Below are positions 29,834 to 62,636 of a DNA stretch of 64,000 nt, piece after piece; position 1 is the first letter of the stretch, and every line of letters begins with the position of its first letter. A program made the translations under genes and the position numbers. This DNA is from a bacterium (lineage in GTDB: Bacteria; Omnitrophota; Gorgyraeia; Zapsychrales; Zapsychraceae). The notes beneath the pieces are model-generated. The model made no database searches. It was not told where the DNA came from and saw nothing but the letters and a program-made list of their open reading frames with translations. The stretch is from assembly GCA_030429765.1 (NCBI GenBank), contig JAUIER010000007.1, positions 68,372-132,371 on the forward strand, given 5' to 3'.

Positions 29834-30394
29834 TTAAGACTTCTGAATTCCTGATATGGTCTTTATGTGTAGATTGATTCTGGGTTTCCGCGGAAATTTT
29901 GGTTGGGTCATCGTCGACACGTTTGATGGACCCGACATCATGCTCACCGGCTTGACCGACGTGCGTAAACGAATCGTCGGTGTCTGTAGCCGCGATGACA
30001 TCGGTTCAGCCTTCACCAGATGCGACACGGATCCAGGCTGGACGACGGGACTGTCGGGCTTTTGATGGATCAGCTTGATCACCATCACGGCCATGAGCAG
30101 CACAATCGTTAATCCGGCCGCGGCCTGCCGAAATCTCCTGCTCCGTGACGAGACGATCTCCCGGCGTTCCATCTTGTGATGGATCTCATAGACGAATACG
30201 TCCCCGCCGGAGAAATCCTGCGGCGGTGGAGTGACACGGTTGAGAACGGTCAGCGTCGACTTAAGTTCTTCTGTCACTTTTTGACAGGCCATGCATTCTT
30301 TTAAATGACTCTCCATCCGCATCTGCTGTTTGGAAGAAAGCTCGCCTAGTAGATACCCGATCCATTCATTTCGCTTATGCCGACATTTCATCAT
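29834..30394 (-). CDS. Anti-sigma factor (zf-HC2 type, single TM)
   Basis: HLKECMACQ zinc motif, then TM (AAAGLTIVLLMAVMVIKLI); 20-nt overlap with the sigma gene. Confidence 0.55.
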   Translation of the reverse strand: MMKCRHKRNEWIGYLLGELSSKQQMRMESHLKECMACQKVTEELKSTLTVLNRVTPPPQDFSGGDVFVYEIHHKMERREIVSSRSRRFRQAAAGLTIVLLMAVMVIKLIHQKPDSPVVQPGSVSHLVKAEPMSSRLQTPTIRLRTSVKPVSMMSGPSNVSTMTQPKFPRKPRINLHIKTISGIQKS

Positions 30395-30944
30395 ACGTCT
30401 GCTCCTTCTTGACTATTTGACTCAACCGTTTCATCGCCTGGTTGAGCAAGGCCTTGACCGTTCCGGGGCGGCATTGCATCACCGCCGCTGTGTCTTCAAC
30501 GCTTAGCCGTTCATAGATCCTCAGTAGAACCACTTGATGCTGACGTTTGGGCAACTGCCCGAGCACGCGCTTGATCATCGCCTTCTGCTCCTGGTAATGC
30601 ATGCCGACTTGAGCTTCCGGATGCGTCTGCAGCTCCTTGTGCTCACCGATATACTCATAGTAGTCGAGGCGGCTGTGTTTGCGCCGCCAGTTCCGGGCCA
30701 GGTTCCAGGTGGTCTGATACAGCCACGTGAAAAACTTGGCCTTGAACCGCCACTTGGGCAGCATTTGATGGGCCTTGATGAAGACCTCCTGGGCGATGTC
30801 CCGGGACTCCTCCTGCTGTCCGATCACCCGGTACGCCATCCGGCACACCGCCGCCTGATGCCGCCGGACCAGATCATTGAAGGCCTCGACGGATCCGGCC
30901 TGAAATTCCCGGATAAGCTCTGCGTCTGGATCTTGAATTTTCAT
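30375..30944 (-). CDS. ECF (sigma-70 group IV) RNA polymerase sigma factor
   Basis: Region 2 (FNDLVRRHQAAVCRMAYRV...DIAQEVFIKA) and region 4 HTH (LSVEDTAAVMQCRPGTVKALLNQAMKRL). Confidence 0.85.
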   Translation of the reverse strand: MKIQDPDAELIREFQAGSVEAFNDLVRRHQAAVCRMAYRVIGQQEESRDIAQEVFIKAHQMLPKWRFKAKFFTWLYQTTWNLARNWRRKHSRLDYYEYIGEHKELQTHPEAQVGMHYQEQKAMIKRVLGQLPKRQHQVVLLRIYERLSVEDTAAVMQCRPGTVKALLNQAMKRLSQIVKKEQTYDEMSA

Positions 30945-31046: not shown

Positions 31047-31919
31047 TCAGGCATGTTTGAATCTGTAGTAGGTCAGCCAAATCCCGTACCCGACCAATAT
31101 CAGACCAATCAAATACGATCCAGCAATGACAAGAACTTGAGGAATCATGATCCCAAATCCAAGCAGGATTTGAACGCCTTCATTCCAATCTTTGCGATCC
31201 AGGAACGTCGGTATAATCGGAAACCATTTATTGCGCAGCAGGATTGTCATGAGCGATGGGAAAAGTATGCCCAACGCAAAAAATGTTATGGGACGTTCAT
31301 TTTTTCCGGGCACGAAGGGTTTATTGATCTCGGCTTTGAGCTGCGCCTTGGGTTTCAATACACGGGCTTCCAACTCGGTTTTGGGATGGATTTTTCCAAC
31401 AGCATCGCCAAAGACCAGGGTCTGCCCAACCTCGAAGTGATCAATCCATTGAATCAGTCGATCACCAAATTCTTTGCGCAAACGTGGATACAGCGCCTCA
31501 ATGGCCAGAAAGTCCCGATAGTCCTCGGGCATCAAAACCCGCCAGCTGACTACTTTCCAAATGATACCAAGACCGGCAAAACACCAAAACACGGCCGTAG
31601 CTTCCCCTATACCCAGCCAGACCCGGTATTCACCCGCCGCCTGCCAATTACGCATGACCACCCAGGTCACAAGCGCGACCATGGGAATACTGAGCAAGGG
31701 CCAAATGATCTTTTGCAGGACCATTTGATGGCGACATGCGTGACACATGAAACATGATCGATCGGCAACAAACAGCCAGTCATCCAGATACTGATTGGCC
31801 TGAAGATACTCCCGCTCGCCTCTGCGCCACAGTGTAATCTTGTGCAGACGACCGGGCCTATTCTGACGTTGGCAACGAATACAAGTCGTTAAAGAAGTTT
31901 GCATAGATATTCCACCCAT
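31047..31919 (-). CDS. Membrane protein with N-terminal CxxC...CxxC zinc ribbon
   Basis: CIRCQ...CFMCHAC, then about 6 TM. Confidence 0.3.
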   Translation of the reverse strand: MGGISMQTSLTTCIRCQRQNRPGRLHKITLWRRGEREYLQANQYLDDWLFVADRSCFMCHACRHQMVLQKIIWPLLSIPMVALVTWVVMRNWQAAGEYRVWLGIGEATAVFWCFAGLGIIWKVVSWRVLMPEDYRDFLAIEALYPRLRKEFGDRLIQWIDHFEVGQTLVFGDAVGKIHPKTELEARVLKPKAQLKAEINKPFVPGKNERPITFFALGILFPSLMTILLRNKWFPIIPTFLDRKDWNEGVQILLGFGIMIPQVLVIAGSYLIGLILVGYGIWLTYYRFKHA

Positions 31920-31990: not shown

Positions 31991-34699
31991 CTACTTAAAC
32001 TGCATCGGTGGTTGCTGGTGGTATGGCTCCGCGTACGGATACGGCTGAGGCTGTGGATAATCATCATACGGAACCGGATAGGTTCGATATTGATAATCCA
32101 ACTGCCGTGCTGTTTCAACCAGGCCGATCAATTCGCTACGTTGTCCATCCTTATCCGAGCCCAAGGAACTGCGCACCGCTCGAAGCACGTGATCATACGA
32201 CGCGTGACCTTTGTAACGTGAATTACGCAACATCAAGCCAAACTCGGCGACCGCCGCGGCAAATTGCAGATCCCCGCTCGGCCGGGACAGAATATGATTT
32301 TGCTGCACCACCCGCTTGATCAATCGGCTTCGATTGCCGTTGGGTTTTTTATATCGGAGTTTGACCGTCATCAATTCCGGATTATTCCAGATGCTGGGGC
32401 GCCGTTGATACTTCAGCGGGTCCACGCCACTCTTGTACTGCTGGTACGGCATCGGCCGCATCCCGACGGGAACCACTTCATAAATTGCGGTCACAGTGTG
32501 TCCCGCGCCGATCTCGCCGGCATCCACCCGGTCGTCATTAAAGTCCTGTTTGGCCAACATACGGTTTTCGTAACCGATCAGACGGTACGCCTGAATATGA
32601 TCAGGGTTGAACTCAATCTGAACCTTGACATCCTTGGCAATGGTAAACAGGGTCGATCCTAATTCCTGCACCAGGACCTTTTCGCCTTCACGCAGACTGT
32701 CGATGTAGTGATATGTGCCGTTACCGTTGTCGGCAATCTTCTCCATCTTGGCATCCTTGAGATTACCGGTGCCGAAACCGAGTATCGACAGAAACACCCC
32801 TTCTTTGCGTTTGTCGCTGATCAAACGGACCAGCTCATAGTCATTCTGCATCCCGACATTGAAATCTCCGTCGGATGCCATGATGACCCGGTTGTTTCCG
32901 TTCTTGATATAATTATCACGCGCAATTCGGTAGGCCAATTTGAGACCGGCCTCACCGGCCGTCGATCCGCCGGCCCGTAGGCTGTCGATCGCGGCATGAA
33001 TGCGGGCTTTGTACGCGCCGGGTGTTGAGTCCAATACCAATCGGGCTGAGCCCGAATACGTGACAATAGCCACGCGCTGATCATCCCGCAATTGATCGAC
33101 CATCATCTTCAAACACCGTTTCAGCAACGGCAGTTTGTTGCGGTTGTTCATCGAACCCGAGACATCGATTAAAAACACCAGATTGCTCGGCGGAATTTTG
33201 CGCTCGGACGGAACAGCGCCCTGTAAACCGATCCGGACCAGATAATGACCGGGATTCCACGGACTCACCGCCGCATCGGTGTTGACCGAAAACGGCTCAC
33301 CGCGTTTGGGTTGATCGTAGTCGTAACTAAAGTAGTTGAGCATCTCCTCGATCCGGACCGATGCGGCCGGTGGCATTTGGCCTTGCTTGAGGAAACGGCG
33401 AATATTGGAATACGACGCCGTATCCACGTCCACGGAGAACGTCGATAGCGGATTATTCTTGGCCGACATAAACGGATTTTCATACACCGGATCATACTCT
33501 TCGGTATTCGAACGGCGGACGTTTCGAGGGCGATAACGATATTCGCCATCTCGGTCATCCTGCCAGTAGCCTTCCCGGTCAACGATCGCCTCTTCGGCTT
33601 CATACTCGTTTTCCAGATAGTATGGTTCATAGGTCGGGGCCGCCCGGCGCGATGAGACGGATGCCTGTCGTTCTGCCCGACCTCCCACAAAATCGGCCTC
33701 AGCCGGAGCCGGGCGTGATTGCGCCGGAAACGCCGGTTCCTGAATGCGTGCAAGCTGTCCGACCTGACTTGTCGATTCCTGGGTCACCCGCGGCTCATAC
33801 CCTGCCACTTGAAATCCTCCGCCTTTCAATCGATTGACCGATGCAACATTCTTGTCACGTTTATACGTTTCGGTCTTTCGAGGTGCGGGAGCCGGATCAC
33901 CTAGACCCTGAATTAACCCCAGGCTGGTGTCATAACTGGATTCCTGGAAACCGCCGGTTCCGCGTGTCCGTTGATTATCCTTCCGGGCCGGGGCGTTGGA
34001 GTACTTCGCTAATTGATCCACCGGCCCCGTTGGCGCGGCAACTTGATTTTGGACGACGGGTGAATCTATGCTGGATTCATCACGATAGGCGTCAGCGAGA
34101 TCAAAACCCGTATCCACTCTGGACGTCTCGACAGCCGCCACTGCCGCGGCCTTTTTGTCTTGAAGTTTACCGCCGACCGATTCTCGGAGAGTGGACGATA
34201 CGACCTCCGGCGCCTGCTTTGCCTTTTGCGCCAGCCGTTCTTTCTGATACGAGGCCTCATTGGCCTTCAGTTTAGCCATTTCCGTCCTTTGTTGCTGCTC
34301 TAAATAAGTTCGATCATAGTCGTCGACACGCTGAGCGTACTTGAATTGGGACTGGTTTGAAAATGTCTTGAGATAAATCGCTCCGATAAACACACATAAC
34401 GCGATGGCGACAAACGCTCCGCCGCCGATGCGCATTGACTTTTTACCTTCCATGATAGGTTCCTCCCGGAGCTTATCATCAAGCAACGATCGCTGTATCT
34501 TGTCCGTCAGGTCGCCGGACACCTGCTCATCCGGCCAATCCTGCAGTAAACTGGACACCTGTTTGAGTTCTTTGTAGTAATCCTGCCATTCCTTGGAATT
34601 CAGAATTAAATCCTCGGCCTGTTTTCGTTCCGCGTCGGACACACAGCCATCTATATATGCTGAAATAAGCTCTTTATATTTTTCGTTGTTGTTAGTCAT
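31991..34699 (-). CDS. Anti-sigma factor fused to vWA/YfbK-like (vWA + DUF3520) periplasmic domain
   Basis: N-terminal anti-sigma helix bundle, one TM, long Q/P/A-rich linker, then MSAKNNPLSTFSVDVDTASYSNIRRF...LVFLIDVSGSM MIDAS motif. Confidence 0.7.
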   Translation of the reverse strand: MTNNNEKYKELISAYIDGCVSDAERKQAEDLILNSKEWQDYYKELKQVSSLLQDWPDEQVSGDLTDKIQRSLLDDKLREEPIMEGKKSMRIGGGAFVAIALCVFIGAIYLKTFSNQSQFKYAQRVDDYDRTYLEQQQRTEMAKLKANEASYQKERLAQKAKQAPEVVSSTLRESVGGKLQDKKAAAVAAVETSRVDTGFDLADAYRDESSIDSPVVQNQVAAPTGPVDQLAKYSNAPARKDNQRTRGTGGFQESSYDTSLGLIQGLGDPAPAPRKTETYKRDKNVASVNRLKGGGFQVAGYEPRVTQESTSQVGQLARIQEPAFPAQSRPAPAEADFVGGRAERQASVSSRRAAPTYEPYYLENEYEAEEAIVDREGYWQDDRDGEYRYRPRNVRRSNTEEYDPVYENPFMSAKNNPLSTFSVDVDTASYSNIRRFLKQGQMPPAASVRIEEMLNYFSYDYDQPKRGEPFSVNTDAAVSPWNPGHYLVRIGLQGAVPSERKIPPSNLVFLIDVSGSMNNRNKLPLLKRCLKMMVDQLRDDQRVAIVTYSGSARLVLDSTPGAYKARIHAAIDSLRAGGSTAGEAGLKLAYRIARDNYIKNGNNRVIMASDGDFNVGMQNDYELVRLISDKRKEGVFLSILGFGTGNLKDAKMEKIADNGNGTYHYIDSLREGEKVLVQELGSTLFTIAKDVKVQIEFNPDHIQAYRLIGYENRMLAKQDFNDDRVDAGEIGAGHTVTAIYEVVPVGMRPMPYQQYKSGVDPLKYQRRPSIWNNPELMTVKLRYKKPNGNRSRLIKRVVQQNHILSRPSGDLQFAAAVAEFGLMLRNSRYKGHASYDHVLRAVRSSLGSDKDGQRSELIGLVETARQLDYQYRTYPVPYDDYPQPQPYPYAEPYHQQPPMQFK

Positions 34700-35273
34700 G
34701 GTTCCCCTCCTGAATGTGGGAAGCTAATTCGACTCTCAACGATTCTCTGGCGCGAAAGATCAGGACTTTTACATTCGCCAATGAACAATCAAGAATACCG
34801 GCAATCTCATCGTAAGAAAACCGATGATACTCCCGTAGGACTAATGCCTCGCGCTGCTGAACCGCCAGCTTCGCGATGGCCTGCTGAACCACCCGGGCAC
34901 GCTCCTTGACCGCCAACTCCTCTGAAGAATCCGGCTGATCATCCGCGATGTCCCACTGCTCAGTCTGTGAACTATCTTTTTTCGAAAAGGTCATGGAAAA
35001 GAATCGTCGGGATTTTCGGATCCGATCGATACATTTGTTCCGGGCAATGGTAAACAGCCATGTCGAAAACTTGGCCGTTGTTTGATACCTGTGCTTATGC
35101 CCCATCAAGGTGACAAAGACATCATGCGCGACATCCTCCGCCTCCGCCCGGTTTCCGAGCATCCGCAGACAGAAATTCAGAATTCGATTTTTGTATCGAT
35201 GAAATATCACAGAAATCGCCTCACGGTTTCCTGACTGGTAGTCCAGCATTATCTCTTCGTCGGTTTGATCCAT
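34692..35273 (-). CDS. ECF RNA polymerase sigma factor
   Basis: Region 2/4 motifs; 8-nt overlap with downstream anti-sigma gene. Confidence 0.85.
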   Translation of the reverse strand: MDQTDEEIMLDYQSGNREAISVIFHRYKNRILNFCLRMLGNRAEAEDVAHDVFVTLMGHKHRYQTTAKFSTWLFTIARNKCIDRIRKSRRFFSMTFSKKDSSQTEQWDIADDQPDSSEELAVKERARVVQQAIAKLAVQQREALVLREYHRFSYDEIAGILDCSLANVKVLIFRARESLRVELASHIQEGNHD

Positions 35274-35297: not shown

Positions 35298-35334
35298 AGT
35301 TACGTAACTATCGGGTTCGCGGGCCCGCGAACCG
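35298..35334. promoter_or_regulatory. Two adjacent perfect palindromes (AGTTACGTAACT and CGGTTCGCGGGCCCGCGAACCG) in the ECF sigma promoter / bc-operon 3' region
   Basis: Read directly; 12-nt and 22-nt perfect palindromes 4 nt apart. Confidence 0.4.
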
Positions 35335-35421: not shown

Positions 35422-35901
35422 TTAACGATACTTATCATATTTAAGCCCGATATGATGCAGAAACGGCTTAAACCGGCTGTGTTCACTGTCAAACCCGTGA
35501 AACTCACACCCGCAGCGATAGCAATTTAATATAAAGGGAACACGCTTATGCAGCAGCCAGTCAACGCCGGCGAAAACCGGCAGGCTCAGACCATAGGTCC
35601 ATGGCACCAGCACAATGCCGGCCAGCATGATCGTGCATCCTAGAAATTGATTGAAATTTTTGGAGAGGTAGAATTGGCGGCACGGGCACATCGGGCAACG
35701 GTCAAACATGTCATCGGCTTTGTGAACGGTCCCCCACGCCTTGTGGCAGGATGGACACTCGAGTTGGATTTGCCCGGTCCATTCCAGCTGGGCGTACTCA
35801 TGACAGTGTGGACAATGACGTGCGATGATTCGGCTCACAGCACAATTCCGTATTTGATAAGATAAAATTTGTAGGCCATATCGGCCAGTAATACCGCGCA
35901 A
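35422..35901 (-). CDS. Double zinc-ribbon membrane protein
   Basis: CPHCH-x17-CPSCH and CPMCPC...CYRCGC flanking a TM hairpin; 67-nt overlap with the upstream gene, so start uncertain. Confidence 0.3.
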   Translation of the reverse strand: MRGITGRYGLQILSYQIRNCAVSRIIARHCPHCHEYAQLEWTGQIQLECPSCHKAWGTVHKADDMFDRCPMCPCRQFYLSKNFNQFLGCTIMLAGIVLVPWTYGLSLPVFAGVDWLLHKRVPFILNCYRCGCEFHGFDSEHSRFKPFLHHIGLKYDKYR

Positions 35902-36623
35902 AGCACCACGTATAAAACGCCGGTCGCCGCCTGGGTATTCTTTAGCCGGATAATTTCTCGAACCATGAACAATCCGACCAGCGGAAACAACACGCCGAAG
36001 AATATAGGAATGATCAGCAGAAATCCGTCCATTTCACGGATAAACTCAAACAGGCTCAGCCGGTCGCCCTGATACATGACTGTTTGCGTAAACAAATTGA
36101 TCGCATCCCACACACCGCGGATGGCCACTAACATCAACAGGACCGCATTGGAATGACGTAGATGTTTGATCGGTAAGCCATGGACATTCAAATACCAATG
36201 CCCAAGGTTCATCGTATACAGTGATGCGCAAAAAATCAATCCACCCACTATCGAGATCACGAAGACAATCATGCGGGCATCGAACAACTCGACCTGCACT
36301 TGATAGCTGATCCACAGGCCGATCAGTGCCAGGACAGATACCGCTCCTGTAGAGACAGTCTCGCGCCGCCAATAAAACGCCGTTATCCCGATCGCCAACG
36401 CCATCCACAGAACAGAAATATAGCGAAGCGGACCATCAATCGGCATACGGTATACGAAGATCAAGGCGATCACACCGATGATTGTGGGCAGACCTAGATG
36501 AAAATGATGAAAATTGTTACGGAGTGGATCCCGGACACTAATCCAAAAACACAAGGGATACAGAAAGGCAAAATACAGACTGGTTGTTAACGTGATGGTA
36601 GAAAGCATACCGACACCGACCAA
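35835..36623 (-). CDS. Polytopic membrane protein (about 8 TM, conserved His), co-operonic with the bc complex
   Basis: 6 nt downstream of the cytochrome c gene; His-containing helices (HHFH, HWYLNVHG). Confidence 0.35.
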   Translation of the reverse strand: MVGVGMLSTITLTTSLYFAFLYPLCFWISVRDPLRNNFHHFHLGLPTIIGVIALIFVYRMPIDGPLRYISVLWMALAIGITAFYWRRETVSTGAVSVLALIGLWISYQVQVELFDARMIVFVISIVGGLIFCASLYTMNLGHWYLNVHGLPIKHLRHSNAVLLMLVAIRGVWDAINLFTQTVMYQGDRLSLFEFIREMDGFLLIIPIFFGVLFPLVGLFMVREIIRLKNTQAATGVLYVVLCAVLLADMAYKFYLIKYGIVL

Positions 36624-36629
36624 TGCCTG

Positions 36630-39611
36630 TTACGGATTGGATTCTGCGGGCGCGGCCTTCTTGGGGGCCGTCGTGGATTTCGGACGAGGTTTCGCCTTGG
36701 CTTCCGGTTCGGGCGTGTCATCTGACAAAGACATCAGGAAGTTTCGCAACACGCGGATCTGCTCGTCTTCATTTCCGTCCAGAATATCTTCCGGCCCGGA
36801 TTCCTCGTAGCTGTCCGGATCAAAGAATGTCGGCATTTTTGTGCCCGGCATCAGAGCTGACGGATTCTTCAGCCATTCAATCAGCCATTCCGGCTGCAGC
36901 CGGGTTCTGGCCAGGGCCAGGTTCGGCGCCCATGAATCCTGCGATCCCGACGGCAACTTGCCGCCGACCACGTGACACTGCGTACAGCCGAAGTAGTCTT
37001 CCGAGAAGAGTTTTTCTGCCGCCGCGTATTCTTCTTTGGTCATCTTGGTGTCCGGATCAAATTTGTATGGGAACGCATCACCGTCGACGGCTTGGAAATA
37101 CTGGATGAGTGAGTTCAGATGCGAAACGTTAAAGTTAAACGTCGGCATCCGCACGCGCAACCACGGCCGCACGATCTGCTTGGGCTCATGAAGGAAGTTA
37201 AACAGCCATTCCGGATCAAGTTTCTTACCGACACCGTGAAGATTCGGCGGACTGAAACTGTCACGTACCGTTGCCGCCTCGTTGTCTGTTTTCCCTTCGT
37301 ATTCCTTCAGCCACGTCTCAACGGTTGAGGCAATCGTACCGCCGTTGCCTTCCATGATGTGACACCCCTGACAGTTAAACTGAGCAATCAAATCCTGACC
37401 TTTCTCCTTGATCAGATTTTCCGGTGTTCGCGGAACCTTCTTGGCTTCGACGGTGCTGGTGTTCACAAATCCCATCAACGCCGTTACAATCGCCTCAATC
37501 TCCTCGTCCTTGAATTCAAAATTCGGCATCCGCAGCTTTTCATCCGGCGCCTTGATCTTTCCATGATCAAAACTTCGTGGATCCTTAAGCTTTTGTGTAA
37601 ACCAGGCATGCTTGCTGTGTTCAATGTGCAGGAAGCCAAAATCAAACTTATGGATCGACTTGCTGGCCTCTTCGGTCAGCTCAACCCCGATCGGTTTGGC
37701 GCCTTCAAATCCCTTGATGTTATGACAGCTGTAGCAGCCGTATTGGCTGATCAATTTTTCACCGGCAAAGTGAAGCTTCTCGCCGAGTTTCATTTGGGCC
37801 AGTTTGTCGCGCGCTCCCTGGTCAGTTAATCCGCGTTTTAAGAAATCGATCACAATTCCGTTTAGGATGTTGACATCAATCTCGGGGACCGGCTGAGCGT
37901 CAAACTCACGGTTTTTATCCCCTGATAGAAATTCGGCAATATCCGCCGCTTCCTGGTCCGTCAACCGCATATCCGGCATGGACGTTTTGGGATGGTAACG
38001 CGTCGGATCTTTCAGCCAATTGAACAGCCATTGCTTGGACGTCTTGGATCCCAAACCGATTAAGTTCGGACCATGACGTCGACGGAGATTGTCAATATCT
38101 GTCTTGACCAGATCGGCTTCAGGTTTGATTTGGTGGCACGCATAACAGCCGATGGATTTGACCAACTCCTCACCCGTCTCGGCGTTTCCTTTAACGGGGA
38201 GCTTGGCCTGCTGGAACGGCTGCGTGTTCTCGAATAGATAGTGGATCATCGCGTGAATCTCCTGCGATGAACGCTTGAGTGATACTGGATCGCTGTTGTT
38301 GGATTGATTAAAGTACGCCGGCATCATGGCGTTGTGACGGAATGAATGCGGATCATTGATCCAGCGATAGGCCCATTCCTTGGAAATCTTAGTATCCAGC
38401 TTGGTTAAATCAGGCCCCGGCTTGTTCCAGTGTTTGTACTTGTCGATCTCGTGACAGGCGTAGCATCCGGACTTTTCAATCAGGCTTAGCCCCAGATTCA
38501 ATTTATCGGCACCCTTGATGCGCGTTTCACCGCTGTGACACTTGAAACATTGAGACTGCGTCAACGGCAATGGAATCATCGGATCTTCCCATAACTCCAT
38601 TTGGTGATAACCGTACTTTTCTTCCCACTCGGCTTTTTGGGCCGGGCTTGAAGGCACGTGAACCGCTCCGTTGAAACTGGTCCCACGCGCCCGACCACCA
38701 TGACAGACGGTACAACCGAATTCCTCGATCGGATGCGGCGAGTTCTTGCCGACGTATTGCTCAAGATTTGGATGCGTCTTGAACGGCTGGACTTCATTCT
38801 CATAGTCCGGATTTGTGATTCCCAAATGGCAGCTGATACAGCGTTCCACTTTGGGAACGTTCATGAAATTCACGTTATCCGTAACATCCTTGAGGACAAC
38901 CTGCTCGATCTTGTTGTTGGGATTGGCCAGGTCAAGCACGGGAAGGTCCCGGACCAGATTGGCGATCTGATTGACAAAGGTCATTTCCGCCGGGTCAATA
39001 CTGTCCAGCTTTCGCTGCAACAGATCACGCTGACCGGCGATCTTGGATTGACTGCGGCGCAGCTGTTTAAGCTCTTCCCCGCAGCTCTTGATCTCCTGCT
39101 CCTTAGCCTTGAGCGCCTGCTTGCTGACTTCCAGCTGCAGACCCAGTTCGTTGACACGTTCTGATAAGGCCTGGAATTCCTCGCCATACTTCTCGGCATC
39201 GGCCTCCTGATAAGCCTCGGCATGCTCAAATTTGTACTTTAACGCGTCGAGTTCGGCCTTGCGGAATTTATAGTCCTGTTCCACAAGAATGGCCTGGTCC
39301 TCAACTTCTTTGAGGCTGGCCTTGATTTCATCGGTCAGCGCGCACTTGGCGTCAAACTCCGCCTGGGCCTTTTCCAGTTGCGCCACCAATTCATTGTACT
39401 CGTCCTGCGCTTCCAGCGTGAGGGTCTCTTTGTCCAGCTTGACCCTGGCCTTCTCGACTTCCATCGCGCGGAATTGCGTCTGATAGTCCTTCCACTCACG
39501 GTCATAGTCTTTCATGAACAATGACATGATGGCCAGCAGCAAAGCGATACTGGCAAACGCAAACAGCATGTTGAGCTTATTAATATTATAATGACGTTCG
39601 TCTTGTCCCAC
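36630..39611 (-). CDS. Octaheme c-type cytochrome with N-terminal TM and long coiled coil
   Basis: Eight CxxCH motifs (CISCH, CTVCH, CFKCH, CYACH x2, CYSCH, CQGCH, CTQCH); N-terminal heptad-rich E/K/Q segment. Confidence 0.8.
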   Translation of the reverse strand: MGQDERHYNINKLNMLFAFASIALLLAIMSLFMKDYDREWKDYQTQFRAMEVEKARVKLDKETLTLEAQDEYNELVAQLEKAQAEFDAKCALTDEIKASLKEVEDQAILVEQDYKFRKAELDALKYKFEHAEAYQEADAEKYGEEFQALSERVNELGLQLEVSKQALKAKEQEIKSCGEELKQLRRSQSKIAGQRDLLQRKLDSIDPAEMTFVNQIANLVRDLPVLDLANPNNKIEQVVLKDVTDNVNFMNVPKVERCISCHLGITNPDYENEVQPFKTHPNLEQYVGKNSPHPIEEFGCTVCHGGRARGTSFNGAVHVPSSPAQKAEWEEKYGYHQMELWEDPMIPLPLTQSQCFKCHSGETRIKGADKLNLGLSLIEKSGCYACHEIDKYKHWNKPGPDLTKLDTKISKEWAYRWINDPHSFRHNAMMPAYFNQSNNSDPVSLKRSSQEIHAMIHYLFENTQPFQQAKLPVKGNAETGEELVKSIGCYACHQIKPEADLVKTDIDNLRRRHGPNLIGLGSKTSKQWLFNWLKDPTRYHPKTSMPDMRLTDQEAADIAEFLSGDKNREFDAQPVPEIDVNILNGIVIDFLKRGLTDQGARDKLAQMKLGEKLHFAGEKLISQYGCYSCHNIKGFEGAKPIGVELTEEASKSIHKFDFGFLHIEHSKHAWFTQKLKDPRSFDHGKIKAPDEKLRMPNFEFKDEEIEAIVTALMGFVNTSTVEAKKVPRTPENLIKEKGQDLIAQFNCQGCHIMEGNGGTIASTVETWLKEYEGKTDNEAATVRDSFSPPNLHGVGKKLDPEWLFNFLHEPKQIVRPWLRVRMPTFNFNVSHLNSLIQYFQAVDGDAFPYKFDPDTKMTKEEYAAAEKLFSEDYFGCTQCHVVGGKLPSGSQDSWAPNLALARTRLQPEWLIEWLKNPSALMPGTKMPTFFDPDSYEESGPEDILDGNEDEQIRVLRNFLMSLSDDTPEPEAKAKPRPKSTTAPKKAAPAESNP

Positions 39612-39628
39612 GTATTAACCCTTCAAGC

Positions 39629-40747
39629 TTAAATATTAAAGAAGAACTCCGGAATCGCGATGATGTACTTGATATTGAACACCCAGCGCAACAGCATCTT
39701 GATCGGCAGACTGGCGGTAAAAAGCAGCAGGATAACAAACACACTGTAGCGCAACGGTCCGAGGTTCTTGAAAACATTCTTGAGCACAGTCTTGGCCAGT
39801 AACAGCGGCATCACACCGAAGTACACAAACACGGCCAAAAATCCCCACATTTCACGAAGCAATATATTCGATGGCAGCTGTTTCTTCATCCAGATCATGT
39901 AGATCAGCTCGGATAAATTCACGTTCGTCAACGCTTCCAGCTTGTGTAGGTCCCAATACTCGAATGGACCGAAGAAGTTCCAGTTCGGCCCCCTCAGGAA
40001 TGTCCCCACACTAATAAGGAAGATCCACAGGACAATCCAGAGAAACATAAAGATCGACACCGCCATCCGCCGATCGTTAAAGGTGTAATAACCCGATCCT
40101 TTTTTATTATTATCGATGTACGGAATGGCCATCAATCCGATCATGATCACCGTTGGAAAGACCACACCCGCCAGCCACGGATCAAAATAAACCAGCATTT
40201 CCTGTAAGCCCAGGAAGTACCATGGGGCCTTGGACGGGTTTGGTGACACCGAGGGATTCGCCGGTTCCTCGATCGGCGCCTGAAGCGCCATCGCCCAGAC
40301 AAGCAATAAGACCGAGCACAGGATCAGACAGATAAATTCAATGTAAACCAGATCGGGCCAGACCAAAATTTTTTCCTTGGCATCCTCCGCCTCTTGCGGC
40401 GGCTTGCCGGCCGCGATACGCGCGTCATTATCGTATGCCTGTTTCATGGATAGCCATAAGAAGAACACGACCAAAAACAGCAGTCCGACAATCGGCACAT
40501 TATCCGGTTTACTGACAATCTTACGGAAGTTCGGATCTGAAATACCAAAGCAGAAAAAGGCGAATAATCCCGACATCATCAGAATACCGCCGTTGCGTGT
40601 CCACAACTTGTAGATCCCCAGCTTGCGGTTGATCTTCTCGAAAAAGTTGTTCATTGGGAAAACGAACAGGTAACTGACGGCCAGAATCGGAAAGAGAATC
40701 TGCGGATTGGTGATTTTGTTTATGACTTCTTTGATGGTTTCAATCAT
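39629..40747 (-). CDS. Cytochrome bc complex subunit IV-like protein (C-terminal half of cytochrome b, extended)
   Basis: PSKAPWYFLGLQEMLVYF corresponds to the PEWY region of cytochrome b/PetD; extra TM helices at both ends. Confidence 0.6.
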   Translation of the reverse strand: MIETIKEVINKITNPQILFPILAVSYLFVFPMNNFFEKINRKLGIYKLWTRNGGILMMSGLFAFFCFGISDPNFRKIVSKPDNVPIVGLLFLVVFFLWLSMKQAYDNDARIAAGKPPQEAEDAKEKILVWPDLVYIEFICLILCSVLLLVWAMALQAPIEEPANPSVSPNPSKAPWYFLGLQEMLVYFDPWLAGVVFPTVIMIGLMAIPYIDNNKKGSGYYTFNDRRMAVSIFMFLWIVLWIFLISVGTFLRGPNWNFFGPFEYWDLHKLEALTNVNLSELIYMIWMKKQLPSNILLREMWGFLAVFVYFGVMPLLLAKTVLKNVFKNLGPLRYSVFVILLLFTASLPIKMLLRWVFNIKYIIAIPEFFFNI

Positions 40748-40811
40748 TTAAGTGACTCAATATGTTAGACTTGAAAATTATTCGATCCAAATTGGTGCGG
40801 CACGCATTGGA

Positions 40812-41609
40812 CTATGTCGGTCCGGAAATTCCTCCGTCTTTACGAACGCGCCAGAAATGCACGATCATAAAGATCATAATCACAAACGGCAGTCCAATAC
40901 AGTGAAGGACATAGAATCGAAGCAGCGCCCCCTCACCGACAAACCGACCGCCCAGCATCGCAAACTTGGCGTCACTGGTTGAGGTGACGAAATTGACATC
41001 GCCTATGGCCAACAAATTCGCGCCCGGACCGCCTGTCCCGGCAAACGGCGTGGCCCCTGCCATATTCGATCCAACCGTGATCGCCCAGATCGCCAGCTGA
41101 TCCCATGGCAACAGATATCCGGTAAAACTCAAAAGCATCGTCAACACAAGCAGAATAACACCGATCGACCAGTTAAACTCGCGCGGCGGCTTGTATGATC
41201 CGGTCATAAACACGCGGAACATGTGCAGCCACACAGTAATAACCATCAAGTGAGCCCCCCAGCGATGAATCTCACGCATGATACCCAATGGTACTTGTTC
41301 GCGCATGTCGATGATGTCGCCATAGGCGTACTCAACCGTCGGACGATAATAGAACATCAATAAAATTCCGGTGATAGTCAATACCAGAAAAACAAAGAAT
41401 GACAAACCTCCCATACACCAGGTGTACTTGACCTTCACCGCGTGCTTGGGCAGCCGGACCGGATGCAGATGCAGGAACACCCCGTTGAGAACAACCATCA
41501 TGCGTTGACGACGGGTGCGCGGGATGCCGGTACGGAAGACAGCCTTCCACACCTGTGAGTTGACTATGTAATCTTGGACTTTCTTGAACATATTGTTGTT
41601 GCCGGACAT
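40812..41609 (-). CDS. petB: Cytochrome b6-type subunit (N-terminal half of cytochrome b)
   Basis: Four TM with paired His heme ligands ([21 protein letters not shown]; [21 protein letters not shown]). Confidence 0.8.
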
Positions 41610-41636
41610 GCGTTCCTCCAGATCATTCCGATCCGC

Positions 41637-42353
41637 TTAGGCCAGGATGTAGGATTCGGGATCGTCCCACTCACCTTTTTCCTGCTGAAATTTTTGAGTT
41701 TTGTCAACGACGATCTCGCCATCATCCGCCAGGGAAATCTTGAATCGCTCCAACGGCCGCGGTGCAGGCCCTTCGAAGTGAATCCCCGTCTTGTAAAATC
41801 CGCTTCCGTGACACGGGCACTTAAACTTCTCTTCGTTCTCCAGCCAATTCGGTGTGCATCCCAGATGTGTACAGACCGTCGATAAGGCATAAATCTTTTC
41901 GCTGTCCCTGACGATCCAGGTTGCCTGCTGATCTTTGTAGCGCTCAGATACTTCCCCGACCACATAATCGTCCGGAAATCCGGCGCGGAAGGATTGTTTG
42001 GGTTCAAATAGGACATTGGGAAAGAGATATCTCAGTACCAGTGAACCGTAACCGCCGAGCACGGCCGCAAAGGCAGTCCACCCGATGGCCAACCATTTGA
42101 CAAACGTGCGTCGATCGACCTCGGGAGCGCTGGTTTGCGCTTTGGTCGCGGCCTTTCGTGTGATCGGCTTGGACACGATACCCGTTTTGCCCTGAAGCTG
42201 CGACGGTGTCACGCCGACTTGCTTGTCATCGCTTGATGTTGGATTGGCTGATGATCCGGCCGGTGGGACCGATGGCCGGGGTGGAATTTTCTTATCAGAT
42301 TTGGATTTGCCGCTGCTCTTTTTTGGAGGCTTGCTCGGATTGTTTTTACTCAT
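41637..42353 (-). CDS. petC: Rieske [2Fe-2S] iron-sulfur subunit
   Basis: TAT-like RRTFVKW signal anchor; CTHLGC...CPCHGS boxes; S/P-rich N-terminus. Confidence 0.8.
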   Translation of the reverse strand: MSKNNPSKPPKKSSGKSKSDKKIPPRPSVPPAGSSANPTSSDDKQVGVTPSQLQGKTGIVSKPITRKAATKAQTSAPEVDRRTFVKWLAIGWTAFAAVLGGYGSLVLRYLFPNVLFEPKQSFRAGFPDDYVVGEVSERYKDQQATWIVRDSEKIYALSTVCTHLGCTPNWLENEEKFKCPCHGSGFYKTGIHFEGPAPRPLERFKISLADDGEIVVDKTQKFQQEKGEWDDPESYILA

Positions 42354-43227: not shown

Positions 43228-43274
43228 TGAATACGTGTCCTATTATAGCAATGTTTATACGCATGCAAAGTGAT

Positions 43275-52496: not shown

Positions 52497-53564
52497 CTAG
52501 ATCGTCTCCACTGATGAGCTGAGATCGTCCGTTTCGCGCTGATCCAGCTTTTCAAGCTTGGCATAAAATCCATTCATTTTGTCGGCAATAATCCCTTCAA
52601 CCGCCTGAACCGCGGCCTGTCGTTTGAGCCGGTTCGCCTCGACGACCGTCTCTAAATCATCAATATGATACAGGACTACATTCTCAAGCTGAGCAATTTT
52701 GGGATCAATATTTCGCGGCATCGAGATATCCATAAAGATCAGCTGACGGCCTTGCCGCAATTCCATCACGCGCTTGACCGTATCCGGATCCAAAATATAG
52801 TGCGGCGCGGATGACGAGCAGATACACAGATCCACCTCACCCAGCGTCTCCTTGATGTCGCAGAACGATACCACCTCGGCCTCAAACAATTCGGCCAACG
52901 CCTCGGCGTGCGCGATAGTCCGGTTCATGACGTAAAGTTTCTCAAAACCACGGTTGGAAATCTGCCCGACGGCGAGCTTGCTCATCTTGCCGGCGCCGAT
53001 CATCAGCACTTTTTTGTCTCCGAGCGATCCCAAATACTGTTCGGCCTTGGTGATCGCCGCCCAACTGACGGATGAACCGCCCGCCCCGATCTGCGTTTCG
53101 TTTTGCGCCTTTTTCCCGACACGGATCGCGACATTCGAGAGGATATTAAATCCCTGGACAAAGAATCCCCGGGTCTGCGCCTTTTCAAAGGCCGACTTCA
53201 ATTGTCCCAGGATCTGACGTTCGCCCAGGACCAATGAATCCAGTCCGGCGATCACGCGAAACAGGTGCTGTACCGCGTCTTGATTGGTATGTGTATAGAA
53301 ATAACCCATGAGGCCGCTGTTGTAGGCGATATCCCGGATCTGACAGATCAGCTGGACCAGCGATTCGGGCTCGTAAGCTGTATTGATCACATGGACATAG
53401 ACTTCGGTGCGGTTGCAGGTGGATATGACAAAGGCCTCGACCACGGCCGGGTCGGACTTGAGTTCGCTGAGCAGCAGGTCCTGCTGGGTCGAATTAAGAT
53501 AGAATTTTTCCCGAATGGAGATCGGGGCTGTTTTGTGATTGATTCCTACGTTGATAATCTGCAT
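52497..53564 (-). CDS. hemA: Glutamyl-tRNA reductase
   Basis: INHKTAPISIREKF...ISTCNRTEVY active-site Cys; NAD-binding GAGKMSKL. Confidence 0.9.
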   Translation of the reverse strand: MQIINVGINHKTAPISIREKFYLNSTQQDLLLSELKSDPAVVEAFVISTCNRTEVYVHVINTAYEPESLVQLICQIRDIAYNSGLMGYFYTHTNQDAVQHLFRVIAGLDSLVLGERQILGQLKSAFEKAQTRGFFVQGFNILSNVAIRVGKKAQNETQIGAGGSSVSWAAITKAEQYLGSLGDKKVLMIGAGKMSKLAVGQISNRGFEKLYVMNRTIAHAEALAELFEAEVVSFCDIKETLGEVDLCICSSSAPHYILDPDTVKRVMELRQGRQLIFMDISMPRNIDPKIAQLENVVLYHIDDLETVVEANRLKRQAAVQAVEGIIADKMNGFYAKLEKLDQRETDDLSSSVETI

Positions 53565-53656
53565 GAATATGTGTATGGATAATCGGTATGTCCGGGTTCA
53601 GTCGGAGTATATCAAAAAGGGCATACCGACGCAAATATTTTGTACTATTATTAGTC

Positions 53657-54700
53657 TTATAAGCTCATCGCGGCGTCCATCTGCCGCTCCAGCACCATTT
53701 TTTCCAGACATTCGATCCACAATGGATGGTCATTGAGGCTTTCCACGAGGTCCAGCGTCTCGCCGCCATGCTCCACAAAGAGCTCATGGTAGGTCTCACC
53801 GATCTCCACCGTGGTTTCCAGGCAATCCGCCACAAATGACGGCGAAAAGGCCAGAATCCGCTTCTTACCCTCCCCGGCCAGCCGCTCAATCTCGGCATCC
53901 GTGTACGGTTTGATCCACGGGTCCTTACCCAACCGGGATTGGAATGACACCGTATAATCCTTAGAATCAATGCCTAGCGCATCTGCCAAAACCCTTGTGG
54001 TCTGATAACACTGGGCCCGGTAACAATAGCGATTTTTGTCGTGAAACACCGAACAGCATTTGTCTGACAGCTGACAGTAACCGCTGGCCGATGATTTACG
54101 GATCTGCCGCTCCGGCAGACCGTGATAGGTAAACAGATAGTGATCATACGATCCCTGATCCATATACTTTTGACCGATGACTTTAAAGGCCTCAATAAAC
54201 GGCGGATAATCCGGGAACTGACTGACCATATCCAGCCTTGGAAAGGTTTGCCAGGCCTTGACCTCCTCCATGACTTTCTCAATGGTCGACCCCGTCGACG
54301 CGGACGCGTACTGCGGGTACAATGGAACCACGATCAAATCTTTAAGCCCGAGGCCATGAAATTCTTTGAGCGCGTCCCGGATACTGGGTGATTGATAGCG
54401 CATTCCCAACACCACTTTGAATCCGTCACCCAATTTCTGCTGAAGGAGCTCCGTAATACGCTGGCCATGCAGCAGCAACGGTGAACCTTTCTCGGTCCAC
54501 AACTTTTTGTATTCTTCCGACGAACTGCGCGAGCGAAACGGCGCGATGATCAGATTGATCAGCAAAAATCGCTGCCAATACGGGATATCGATGACGCGCC
54601 CGTCCATCAGGAATTCACGCAGATACTTGCGGACATCCGGGACATTCGGACTGTCCGGCGTTCCGAGATTAATGAGAAATACACCTGTGTGTGGTTTCAT
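53657..54700 (-). CDS. hemH: Ferrochelatase
   Basis: GVFLINLGTPDSP N-terminus; size and conserved core. Confidence 0.9.
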   Translation of the reverse strand: MKPHTGVFLINLGTPDSPNVPDVRKYLREFLMDGRVIDIPYWQRFLLINLIIAPFRSRSSSEEYKKLWTEKGSPLLLHGQRITELLQQKLGDGFKVVLGMRYQSPSIRDALKEFHGLGLKDLIVVPLYPQYASASTGSTIEKVMEEVKAWQTFPRLDMVSQFPDYPPFIEAFKVIGQKYMDQGSYDHYLFTYHGLPERQIRKSSASGYCQLSDKCCSVFHDKNRYCYRAQCYQTTRVLADALGIDSKDYTVSFQSRLGKDPWIKPYTDAEIERLAGEGKKRILAFSPSFVADCLETTVEIGETYHELFVEHGGETLDLVESLNDHPLWIECLEKMVLERQMDAAMSL

Positions 54701-58411: not shown

Positions 58412-59605
58412 CTACCACCTATACAACCGCACGCGCGTGCCTTTCAATGTTTGTTGACCTCCCGTCAGTTCGACAAAACCGTCCGTGTTGGCCATCGAGG
58501 CAAAATCGCCGGAACCGCCGGTCGCACATGGTTTGGCCGACAGTTCTTCATCAGATGCATGCCGCAATTGCACCGGACAAAAATACGTGAATTTGGTCGA
58601 CGGCGTGTAGTCTTCTGAGAGACGCACAAACTCTTCAATCACCTGTTCACCCGCAGCCCGTCGCAGATTGGGGATCACGTGCCGATATAGGCCCACCTGC
58701 GTCGAAACCGGATTGCCGGGCAAGGCAAACACCGGCGTACCGTTATCGCGTTGACCAAACCAAAATGGCTTCCCGGGCTTTTGACTGACCTTGTGAAACA
58801 GAGCCTTTACCCCTAGTTCATCCAATACCTGCGGAATCAAATCAAACTTTCCCATCGAGACACCGCCGGTCAGGATCACGACGTCGTAATTTTCCAGGAT
58901 CGCGCCGATCTGTTTACGTAGCACTTTTAGGTCATCGCGAAAGTGATACAGGTCCGCGTCATACATCAGGACCTTCCGTAATGCCGCTTGCATAAAATAG
59001 GAATTCGACCGGCGGATTTGATACGGCTCAATCGGCGCGTCGATATCGACCAGTTCATCACCATTCGAAATCAGGGCGATGCGCGGACGCTGGCTTACCA
59101 TCAGCTCCGCCTTACCGATAGCAGCCGCCGTGGCCACTTGAACCGGCCCTAGTGTTGAACCTTTGGTCACCAACACCCTGCCCTGTTTGTGATCCGCTCC
59201 CTGCGGCCGAATGTGCTGCATCTCGGATAATTCCAATCCATCCTCGACCTGGGCCTTGCCGTCGCTAATCTGAACACGCTCAATGGGGATCACGCAATCA
59301 CATCCCTCGGGGACAACCGCCCCGGTCATGATCTCAAAGCAGGCATGATCAAAACACAATGTCTGTTGCGGTTTTCCTGCCGACTGAATCCCCTCGATGG
59401 GAAATCTCCGTGTCCCCTTCTGATAAGCGGCCGCAACAATGGCGATTCCGTCCATCATCGACTTATGAAACGGCGGCAGATCGCGATCCGCCACAAGATC
59501 TTCCTGCAGGACACAGCCATATGACTTGGTCAACGACTGAGTGACCACAGGAAACGCGGTCATGGCATCCCGAATGATTTGATCGGCCTCGGCAACAGAA
59601 ATCAT
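58412..59605 (-). CDS. moeA: Molybdopterin molybdotransferase
   Basis: MoeA N-domain and GGVSMGKFD gephyrin-G-like motif. Confidence 0.85.
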   Translation of the reverse strand: MISVAEADQIIRDAMTAFPVVTQSLTKSYGCVLQEDLVADRDLPPFHKSMMDGIAIVAAAYQKGTRRFPIEGIQSAGKPQQTLCFDHACFEIMTGAVVPEGCDCVIPIERVQISDGKAQVEDGLELSEMQHIRPQGADHKQGRVLVTKGSTLGPVQVATAAAIGKAELMVSQRPRIALISNGDELVDIDAPIEPYQIRRSNSYFMQAALRKVLMYDADLYHFRDDLKVLRKQIGAILENYDVVILTGGVSMGKFDLIPQVLDELGVKALFHKVSQKPGKPFWFGQRDNGTPVFALPGNPVSTQVGLYRHVIPNLRRAAGEQVIEEFVRLSEDYTPSTKFTYFCPVQLRHASDEELSAKPCATGGSGDFASMANTDGFVELTGGQQTLKGTRVRLYRW

Positions 59606-61518: not shown

Positions 61519-62636
61519 CGCTTTTTCCGTTTAAAGGCCATGACTAGAAAGTGAATCGCCAACCCGGCAAAGGTCACCAGGCTCGATACGTACGGCAACA
61601 ACCGGCCAAAATTTTTGACCACCGCCAGTGTCGAGCGTATGCGCTGCGCCGAATCGATCGAATACGACGCTTGGTAAAAGGTATAGTTCTTGAATCGCAG
61701 CGGATGGTTCATGTAAATCTCGGCCCGCCGTTCAATGTCGGCATGCTCAAACTCAACAAAACTGCGATAGCTGCTGGCGATCTCCGTACCCGGATGCTTT
61801 TCCATTTCAAAACGCTCAAGCGTCATCTGGATCGGCAACTCATAGCGTTTGCGCCGCAATTGCAGATGGTAATCAGTCCCATTAATCGACACCCGGGTCG
61901 GCCGTGATTCCTTACCAAACAGGATGACATCTTGTTCAGTTCCGTCAGCCTTAATGCTGAGTAACGCGCCGGGAAAGTTTTTTTCCGGTTCGATCTCGAG
62001 ATCTGTGCGCGCGATCTCGGTGATGCCTGACGCGTTTTGCGGCGGATCCGTCTTCTGGTCCGCACCGACAAAGGCCTGAGCATTGCGGTGATACGCCTTG
62101 ACGATGACATCAAATCCTAATTCGTTGAATCGCAGCGTGTCCGCACTCTTAAAATCATCGCTATCATACGCCCAAACATCCTTGGTTGTCGGATCATTGG
62201 TGGGCTGCCACACGGATAATTCCCAGTCATGGTACGACGCGGAAACATTCGAGGACTCCCCTTCCAACAGCGTGATGTTGGATTCTTCGACAAAGTGCAG
62301 CGTGACAAACGCCCCCACGAAGTAGGTGAGCAATCCCAAATGAATGACCAGGATGCCCAGATGCGACCAGCGATAAACAAACCGCGTGATCGACACCGCG
62401 CAGAGATTGATAAACAAGACCCACAACACCAGCTGAGCCCCGGGAAATGGAAAGAAATCACCGACAAGAAAATACCACGAATTGAAAAACCGTTCCTGCG
62501 ATTCGTACAGTCCAACGGTAACCTGGGACACAGTTCCCCAAAACGTCAGGATAAACAGCAGGATCAGACAGATCACCGTGATACGAATGGAGGCCAGCGT
62601 CCGGATGATCGGATTTTTTTTGAGTGAGGCTATCAT
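61515..62636 (-). CDS. resB: Cytochrome c biogenesis protein ResB/CcsB
   Basis: N-terminal TM pair, large periplasmic domain, C-terminal TM; 4-nt overlap with ccsA. Confidence 0.8.
   Translation of the reverse strand: MIASLKKNPIIRTLASIRITVICLILLFILTFWGTVSQVTVGLYESQERFFNSWYFLVGDFFPFPGAQLVLWVLFINLCAVSITRFVYRWSHLGILVIHLGLLTYFVGAFVTLHFVEESNITLLEGESSNVSASYHDWELSVWQPTNDPTTKDVWAYDSDDFKSADTLRFNELGFDVIVKAYHRNAQAFVGADQKTDPPQNASGITEIARTDLEIEPEKNFPGALLSIKADGTEQDVILFGKESRPTRVSINGTDYHLQLRRKRYELPIQMTLERFEMEKHPGTEIASSYRSFVEFEHADIERRAEIYMNHPLRFKNYTFYQASYSIDSAQRIRSTLAVVKNFGRLLPYVSSLVTFAGLAIHFLVMAFKRKKR

Follow-up and report, generated by a model that had tools for sequence, protein, structure and literature searches.

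Organization of the gene cluster

Here we describe a cluster of seven genes on the minus strand of the Omnitrophota contig JAUIER010000007.1 (assembly GCA_030429765.1), analysed within a stretch of 64,000 nucleotides (nt) covering positions 68,372–132,371 of the forward strand (hereafter the window), with a focus on its last two genes, g5 and g6, which very probably form a conserved two-gene module separable from the cytochrome bc complex encoded beside them. The order of the cluster is HEAT–Rieske–b6–subunit IV–cytochrome c–g5–g6 (Table 1). A preliminary description of this DNA had listed six co-directional minus-strand open reading frames (ORFs) at 35422–42353 and assigned them to a Rieske protein, a split cytochrome b, an octaheme cytochrome c and two further membrane proteins. 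Strong homologues of each ORF were found in dozens of genomes, and these are therefore genes and not chance ORFs. The family assignments could be confirmed as well, but the count of six missed a seventh syntenic gene, encoding a HEAT-repeat protein, which lies 7 nt upstream of the Rieske gene, opens the cluster and keeps this position in all related loci whose contigs extend far enough upstream. The ATP synthase operon is located upstream of this HEAT–bc cluster.

For the last two genes, the lengths given at first (262 and 159 amino acids, aa) turned out to be artefacts of choosing the longest ORF. Instead of the TTG start, g5 begins at the ATG at 36608 and encodes 257 aa; alignments with its homologues begin at this codon, and among the 120 homologues listed, 91 are exactly 257 aa long and most others 258. 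Likewise, g6 starts with the GTG at 35838 and encodes 138 aa, and its homologues, 136–138 aa in length, align from residue 1 of this model. The overlap of the two genes is 4 nt (GTGA), with the g6 start codon lying over the g5 stop codon, and not 67 nt, an arrangement which suggests translational coupling. With corrected starts, the intergenic gaps from the Rieske gene through g5 are 27, 64, 17 and 21 nt, in place of the 6–60 nt reported before. Neither a promoter nor a terminator was predicted in the 21-nt gap between the cytochrome c gene and g5, in a scan whose number of sites in the region did not exceed that in shuffled sequence. As essentially all genes of the window are encoded on the minus strand, a common orientation does not by itself argue for an operon. 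All 2-kb bins of the window show a negative GC skew (cumulative –2.98), which, together with the one-strand gene arrangement, is consistent with a long stretch co-oriented with replication.

A bc complex of the APWY clade

Judging from their sequences, the Rieske, b6, subunit IV and octaheme cytochrome c genes encode what is a quinol:cytochrome c oxidoreductase of the APWY clade. This identity of the bc operon is almost certain, because the family matches (Table 1) coincide with motifs that are kept in relatives, namely the cluster-binding boxes CTHLGC and CPCHGS in 21/21 Rieske proteins, WCMGG in 24 of 25 b6 relatives (TWCMGG in the window), the Qo motif APWYF in all 25 relatives of subunit IV, which are 370–390 aa long (KAPWYF in the window), and eight CxxCH motifs in 29/29 cytochrome c relatives, the first of them at residues 252–263. 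In addition, the b6 protein features, as expected of a four-helix cytochrome b, the two His pairs of hemes bL and bH in helices B and D, with spacings as in b6 (IHRW...LH, 14 residues apart; LHC...VHF, 15 residues apart). The extension of subunit IV to 372 aa, pointed out previously, proved correct: the core spans approximately residues 130–262 and is flanked on both sides by extra hydrophobic helices, adding up to about eight by eye. Concerning the octaheme cytochrome, both the N-terminal transmembrane (TM) helix (residues ~14–33) and the CxxCH motifs, exactly eight in number (residues 258, 300, 355, 383, 489, 626, 747 and 876), were recovered. The intervening coiled coil of about 300 residues was, however, overestimated, and a charged, coil-like stretch of ~175 aa (residues ~34–210) is found in its place, with weak SMC-like matches at 34–207.

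Exactly this combination, i.e., split b6 and subunit IV, the Qo motif APWY, WCMGG replacing YCxGG, standard Rieske boxes and a multiheme c-type partner, was used by Kao and Hunte (2014) to define the APWY clade, which is spread among Deltaproteobacteria, Chloroflexi, Nitrospirales, Planctomycetes and other groups, and for which heme ci binding by WCMGG was noted as untested (PMC4122944). The window operon differs from these complexes in the extra helices flanking subunit IV, the charged stalk of its anchored octaheme cytochrome and the additional presence of the HEAT gene, g5 and g6. The best NCBIfam matches of the window genes are ExtP, ExtQ and ExtS, pointing to the b6/subunit IV pairs of the Geobacter ExtP/ExtQ type, but the scores remain under the curated cutoffs (262 bits vs. 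a cutoff of 290 for b6 and ExtP), and these proteins are consequently not orthologues; PetC-type matches of the Rieske protein also stayed below cutoff. A literature search on bc complexes of Omnitrophota retrieved nothing directly relevant. The bc core adds a member to a described clade, and its extended subunit IV and stalked octaheme cytochrome are notable but phylum-wide. It is a well-conserved Omnitrophota-type representative of a poorly studied clade.

Two membrane proteins without a recognisable family

The structure model of g5 (predicted local distance difference test, pLDDT, 94.6) comprises the eight TM helices predicted earlier, arranged in two four-helix bundles, and its fold is similar to that of CydA/CydB and NrfD-type subunits; all close structural neighbours are respiratory subunits that interact with quinol. 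With hhalign, no internal repeat relating the two halves of the protein was detected (probability 0.3%). Among 79 sequences from all genomic contexts, the invariant core consists of G136-H137-x-Y139-L140, L150, R164, G205, P209, Q226, T229-G230, L232-Y233 and G242-D/E243, and these residues are located at one membrane face of the model or in the second helix bundle. Since the face carrying this patch is rich in K and R (6.2 K+R vs. 2.9 on the opposite face), it is, in the model, presumably the cytoplasmic one. The earlier characterization of g5 as His-rich holds in a restricted sense: the protein contains seven His, five of which belong to two motifs whose conservation is limited to the Omnitrophota-type branch. 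We considered H34, H37, H143 and H149 as a His cluster marking bc-linked copies but rejected this idea, since the cluster is confined to this branch and is missing in L031 and L036, which are bc-linked.

The smaller protein g6 is, in line with the double-ribbon membrane protein proposed initially, built from two Cys4 sets (C9, C12, C28, C31 and C48, C51, C106, C109). Each putative metal site is formed by two CxxC knuckles, and a helical membrane hairpin (residues ~64–99) interrupts the second ribbon. The eight cysteines are invariant in 26 close homologues and 89–100% conserved in distant ones.

The two proteins had been described as lacking a recognisable family, and Pfam, NCBIfam and PDB sequence searches gave no match that would change this view. 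In detail, Pfam and NCBIfam yielded nothing significant for g5 and g6 of the window, Pfam searches with g6 proteins from four phyla gave nothing significant (ribbon matches were all below threshold), a PDB sequence-profile search with g6 returned chance Cys-rich matches only, and the g6 model had no structural neighbour in the PDB. DUF983 (PF06170) was tried as a candidate family for g6 and rejected, as a single Spirochaete homologue reached a non-significant E = 0.78 and the window protein did not match. DUF983 members are small zinc-ribbon proteins with two TM helices from alphaproteobacterial COX operons (PMC4013037); they share with g6 a CPxC ribbon followed by a TM hairpin as well as the position in or near oxidase gene clusters, whereas g6 has a second full ribbon and one ribbon split across the hairpin.

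Despite the absence of a family name, g5 is widespread. With a broad g5 profile, matches at E ≤ 1e-3 were obtained to 2,174 clusters (representatives at 50% identity), of which the top 150 are mostly of ~250 aa (range 151–321) without added domains, and a Pirellulales g5 query retrieved 3,384 clusters at 90% identity, including the cultured Blastopirellula marina and Lignipirellula cremea. The nearest named relatives are metagenome-assembled genomes (MAGs) of Candidatus Omnitrophota, and a Logan contig that shares the gene order encodes a protein 100% identical to the g5 of the window.

Genomic neighbourhoods of the g5–g6 pair

A scan of one genome per GTDB species revealed at least 494 g5 relatives, and 80 loci (L numbers) were fetched. 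These were searched by tblastn and with hidden Markov models (HMMs) built from the window cluster, and neighbouring genes were also taken from precomputed gene calls; a crude ORF clustering of the neighbours was noisy in loci of high GC content, and the former approaches were used instead.

In 34 loci, the order HEAT–Rieske–b6–subunit IV–cytochrome c–g5–g6 is kept as far as the contig reaches upstream, in most cases immediately behind the ATP synthase genes. By title, these loci belong to Omnitrophota, “uncultured Planctomycetales”, one Poribacteria (L036) and a few unclassified bacteria (including L031). Several records titled “uncultured Planctomycetales” or “Lysobacterales” show the Omnitrophota-type atp–bc–g5–g6 synteny at high identity (L006, L007, L010, L011, L013, L015, L018, L023, L027, L028, L030 and L034), and the taxonomic labels of these MAG records may be unreliable.

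Conversely, 47 loci contain g5 but no gene for a Rieske protein, cytochrome b, subunit IV or cytochrome c within 10 kb; they originate from Spirochaetia, Thermoanaerobaculia and other Acidobacteriota, Planctomycetota, one member of the Bacteriovoracaceae and unclassified bacteria. The same applies to L086, a metagenome contig with a g5 46% identical to that of the window, where bc genes are absent and an MCP gene and UvrD are the neighbours. Co-occurrence with bc genes in other genomes, which had been suggested as a check on the two genes, is accordingly found in some phyla and missing in others. The two genes themselves almost always stay together: g6 follows g5 in 33/34 bc-linked loci and is present in 43/47 unlinked ones, and both are adjacent in ~90% of the 81 loci, from at least five phyla. 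A 1:1 stoichiometry is probable. Given the 47 loci and L086 without bc genes, g5 and g6 therefore belong to each other and not to the bc complex. The initial idea that they are novel bc subunits is too narrow, as the pair is not bc-specific.

A second conserved context was found downstream of g6. In many bc-linked loci, including L031 and L036, g6 is followed by genes for a secreted cupredoxin-like protein (Pfam CarboxypepD_reg, with a conserved LHNVH...CDVHPWM ligand-like set), COX1, COX3, COX4, COX2, CtaA and CtaB. In seven loci (L005, L006, L023, L028, L031, L036 and L087), the pair is directly flanked by the cytochrome c gene on one side and the cupredoxin-like/COX1 genes on the other; L087 carries an unbroken string of atp, HEAT, bc, g5–g6 and COX genes, CtaA, CtaB, SCO and DUF420/CtaM. 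The cupredoxin-like protein could shuttle electrons between the octaheme cytochrome and the oxidase. In Spirochaetia, g5–g6 precedes the cupredoxin-like gene, COX1, COX3 and COX2 without any bc genes, and wherever a Spirochaetia locus extends as far as COX1 (six loci), the pair is found upstream of it. At least six bc-linked loci besides the window, however, are free of oxidase genes over the 10 kb downstream, and in the window itself, unlike in many relatives, neither COX1 nor the cupredoxin-like gene was found across the 64 kb.

A third context is that of the Planctomycetota, where a protein of ~1000 aa with FAD_binding_4, FAD-oxidase_C, Fer4 and CCG domains, which we take to be YdiJ-like, is encoded 18–69 nt after g6 in 9/9 loci of the genome scan and in B. 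marina. In the latter, MoaD, MoaE, MoaA and a class V aminotransferase gene follow, with some 4-nt overlaps. Lignipirellula is an exception, with FolE upstream of the pair and a 132-aa Fer4 gene two genes upstream. The acidobacterial locus L059 has the order MoaA, g5, g6, HEAT homologue (HMM E 5e-32) and IscU-like gene.

A quinone-linked module at the cytoplasmic membrane face?

New in this study are the definition of the g5–g6 module and its position at the bc/oxidase junction; the bc operon itself belongs to a known clade. The best explanation for the locus as a whole, which we favour tentatively and rate at somewhat under an even chance, is an APWY bc operon combined with a separable g5–g6 module tied to the quinone pool at the cytoplasmic membrane face. 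The quinone-linked role of g5–g6 is possible and a shade more doubtful than this overall picture; we prefer such an accessory module because it best reconciles the fold of g5 with the bc, oxidase and YdiJ-like contexts.

Mechanistically, g5 would behave like an NrfD- or CydAB-type membrane subunit, i.e., as a cofactor-free scaffold of two four-helix bundles which binds quinone or quinol and conducts protons, with a quinone site formed by the conserved H137, Y139, Q226, T229 and Y233 at the cytoplasmic leaflet and a buried R164–D/E243 pair. The hairpin of g6 would insert beside g5 so that the two Cys4 metal sites cap the cytoplasmic face, where they could dock a cytoplasmic partner or, if iron-loaded, relay electrons to it, and the pair would in this way connect redox partners in the cytoplasm with the quinone pool that is also oxidised by the bc complex. 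The evidence for quinone binding and proton conduction by g5 consists of the conserved residues H137, Y139, R164, Q226, T229, Y233 and D/E243. NrfD-type subunits have been described as cofactor-free, quinone-binding and proton-conducting pairs of four-helix bundles (PMC8076601), and the modelled g5, with eight helices in two four-helix bundles, shares the TM arrangement of these proteins (PsrC, ActC/ActF, DmsC and HybB), for which eight to ten helices are expected. As a remote alternative, g5 and g6 could represent a new minimal cytoplasm-facing quinone reductase, made of an NrfD/CydAB-fold scaffold and a membrane-anchored rubredoxin-like protein.

Several observations weigh against a quinone-linked role. 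Sequence searches do not connect g5 to NrfD or CydA/B: Pfam gave no match at E ≤ 1 for g5 proteins from five phyla (including PF03916, PF01654 and PF02322), and a PDB sequence-profile search returned 0 matches at E ≤ 10. Unlike NrfD-like subunits, g5 is partnered by the Cys8 ribbon/hairpin protein g6, and no NrfC/PsrB-type gene for a four-cluster iron–sulfur (FeS) protein adjoins the pair in the gene calls with Pfam annotation of eight loci, the other loci of the 81 scanned being covered by sequence clustering only. In known NrfD-type subunits, quinone binds within the first helix bundle, on the same side as the FeS partner, whereas the conserved patch of g5 belongs mostly to the second bundle, at the face predicted to be cytoplasmic. 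With respect to CydA/CydB, g5 lacks a Q-loop and possesses only one universally conserved His, at the opposite membrane face; no counterpart of what we assume to be the CydA heme ligands (His19, His186 and Met393) was found, in a comparison made without residue-level alignment. Furthermore, g5 is the least conserved and fastest-evolving protein of the cluster (37–60% identity), a pattern more usual for assembly factors or accessory subunits than for a catalytic subunit with a quinone site, and Cys4 ribbons such as those of g6 usually bind structural zinc. Finally, the Omnitrophota cluster has no cytoplasmic dehydrogenase, the shared minus-strand orientation says little for a linkage, and in Acidobacteriota the pair is near neither bc nor oxidase genes, with no consistent redox neighbour in most of the loci.

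An unlikely alternative is that g5–g6, possibly together with the HEAT protein, is a cytoplasm-side biogenesis factor inserting or attaching heme or a metal in membrane respiratory complexes, one version being a system for attaching heme ci to the cysteine within the WCMGG motif of the APWY-clade b6. The insertion system for heme cn is unknown outside cyanobacteria (Dibrova et al., PMC5600118). The WCMGG motif of the b6 protein would fit this scenario, as would the conserved g5 patch and the g6 ribbons, which are predicted to face the cytoplasm, the contiguity of HEAT homologue, g5 and g6 next to MoaA and an IscU-like gene in L059, the downstream Moa and class V aminotransferase genes in B. 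marina and the evolution rates of g5 and g6, which are similar to that of CtaA. PBS-lyase-type HEAT proteins attach tetrapyrroles to cysteine, which also counts for this possibility. If it holds, there would be parallels to the CCB system (CCB1–4) of cyanobacteria and chloroplasts, which is membrane-embedded, acts from the n-side on a b6 with a CxGG cysteine and is encoded apart from general cytochrome c maturation; in the window, system II (ResB/CcsA) is encoded elsewhere. However, cytochrome b genes are usually not found beside the pair, no homology of g5 or g6 to the CCB1–4, CcsA or CcmF families was found (no CCB or other Pfam model matched), and the functional analogy is speculative. That g5–g6, perhaps with the HEAT protein, is precisely the missing heme ci (cn) attachment system for WCMGG/APWY b6, or else a new quinone reductase, is a long shot.

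The location at the bc/oxidase junction also invites explanations in terms of additional subunits. An assignment of the pair to the heme-copper oxidase, or to a bc–oxidase supercomplex wired by the octaheme cytochrome, would agree with its place between the cytochrome c and cupredoxin-like/COX1 genes in seven loci, its position before COX1 in six Spirochaetia loci and its occurrence among structural genes, outside the assembly-factor block. It seems quite unlikely, though, as the window keeps g5–g6 without COX1, other bc-linked loci do so without oxidase genes downstream, and the pairs of Planctomycetota and Acidobacteriota are near neither complex. Dedicated extra subunits of the Rieske/cytochrome b complex are highly unlikely: the pair follows the cytochrome c gene after 21 nt with no signal between, and the order is retained in 34 loci in which g5 identity falls to 33–40%, including those of Poribacteria (L036) and an unclassified bacterium (L031), but the loci without bc genes and the Spirochaetia, which retain the pair with the oxidase cluster only, speak against it, and the bc-linked synteny reaches into the ATP synthase genes, so that the linkage is partly inherited gene order. 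Inheritance of the gene order in one lineage would in turn explain the position entirely if g5–g6 were a membrane module unrelated to respiration, e.g., a transporter or a lipid-modifying enzyme. About 30 loci from Acidobacteriota and other groups without a consistent redox neighbour, the MCP gene and UvrD beside the pair in L086, FolE in Lignipirellula and the single coding strand of the window are compatible with this view; we consider it very unlikely because three independent conserved contexts (bc, oxidase and YdiJ-like dehydrogenase) are all quinone- or cytochrome-linked, the close structural neighbours of g5 are without exception quinol-interacting, and the position of the pair is held across deep divergence in more than one phylum.

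With ~2,000 clusters at 50% identity, occurrence in cultured Planctomycetes, a fixed Cys8 partner and no sequence relative in Pfam, NCBIfam or PDB, g5–g6 is a candidate amenable to experiments, either for a so far overlooked component of aerobic respiratory chains in bacteria or for a factor in their biogenesis. In addition, the atp–bc–oxidase gene string of these lineages holds two extra conserved players, the HEAT protein and the cupredoxin-like protein.

Surroundings of the cluster

Table 1. Coordinates of the cluster, of neighbouring features and of related loci (window positions unless a locus is given)
Feature	Position	Strand	Remarks
HEAT-repeat (PBS-lyase-like) protein, 288 aa	42361..43227	-	N-terminal TM helix; PF13646 1.5e-17, PF03130 6.8e-10
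Rieske 2Fe-2S subunit, 238 aa	41637..42353	-	PF00355 1.5e-11; Tat-like DRRTFVK signal; CTHLGC and CPCHGS boxes
Cytochrome b6-type subunit, 265 aa	40812..41609	-	PF00033 3e-42, PF13631; WCMGG heme-ci motif
Extended subunit IV, 372 aa	39629..40747	-	PF00032 at residues 162-248 only; ExtQ at 139-262
Membrane-anchored octaheme cytochrome c, 993 aa	36630..39611	-	Pfam Cytochrom_C, Cytochrome_CBB3, Cytochrome_C7
g5 membrane protein, 257 aa	35835..36608	-	8 TM helices; no sequence family
g6, 138 aa	35422..35838	-	two Cys4 ribbons and membrane hairpin
Promoter-like site	43242..43269	-	TTTGCA-16 nt-TATAAT with upstream TG; in 47-nt atpC/HEAT gap; weak lead only
GC-rich palindrome GGTTCGCGGGCCCGCGAACC, perfect	35314..35333	-	~90 nt past g6 stop, in 148-nt spacer; no T-run
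ResB-like/CcsA-type region with HemA, ferrochelatase	59602-62636 and 52497-54700	-	upstream of ATP synthase and bc genes
MoeA	58412-59605		with a rhodanese gene, between the two regions above
ECF sigma factor	34692-35273	-	downstream of g6; 8-nt overlap with the 902-aa protein gene
ECF sigma and 902-aa vWA/YfbK_C anti-sigma-like protein, pair	31991-35273	-	
Second ECF sigma gene	30375-30944		
Cupredoxin-like and COX clusters after g6	L084 14754-20774; L087 11391-18919; L037 11837-16517; also in other related loci		some with small ORFs, SCO, DUF420
FAD/Fer4/CCG protein after g5–g6, Planctomycetota	L083 10001-17390 (Blastopirellula marina); L051, L054, L056, L064, L065, L069, L073, L074, L078		

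Beyond the ATP synthase operon, further upstream in the window, there are genes for HemA, ferrochelatase and a system II pair for cytochrome c assembly, consisting of a ResB-like protein and a CcsA-type protein of 638 aa. Synteny with relatives stops after the anti-sigma gene, near 31991, and genes below this position (e.g., 31047–31919, encoding 290 aa without a family) have no counterparts in the related loci. In the spacer after g6, folding gave an 8-bp stem, with a whole-spacer z-score of –1.1, i.e., not significantly more stable than shuffled sequence; the palindrome GGTTCGCGGGCCCGCGAACC could nevertheless mark the 3' end of the transcription unit. In several relatives, some of them close to the window, the sigma/anti-sigma pair separates g6 from the oxidase cluster; it is still found near g5–g6 in L086, where the bc genes are absent.

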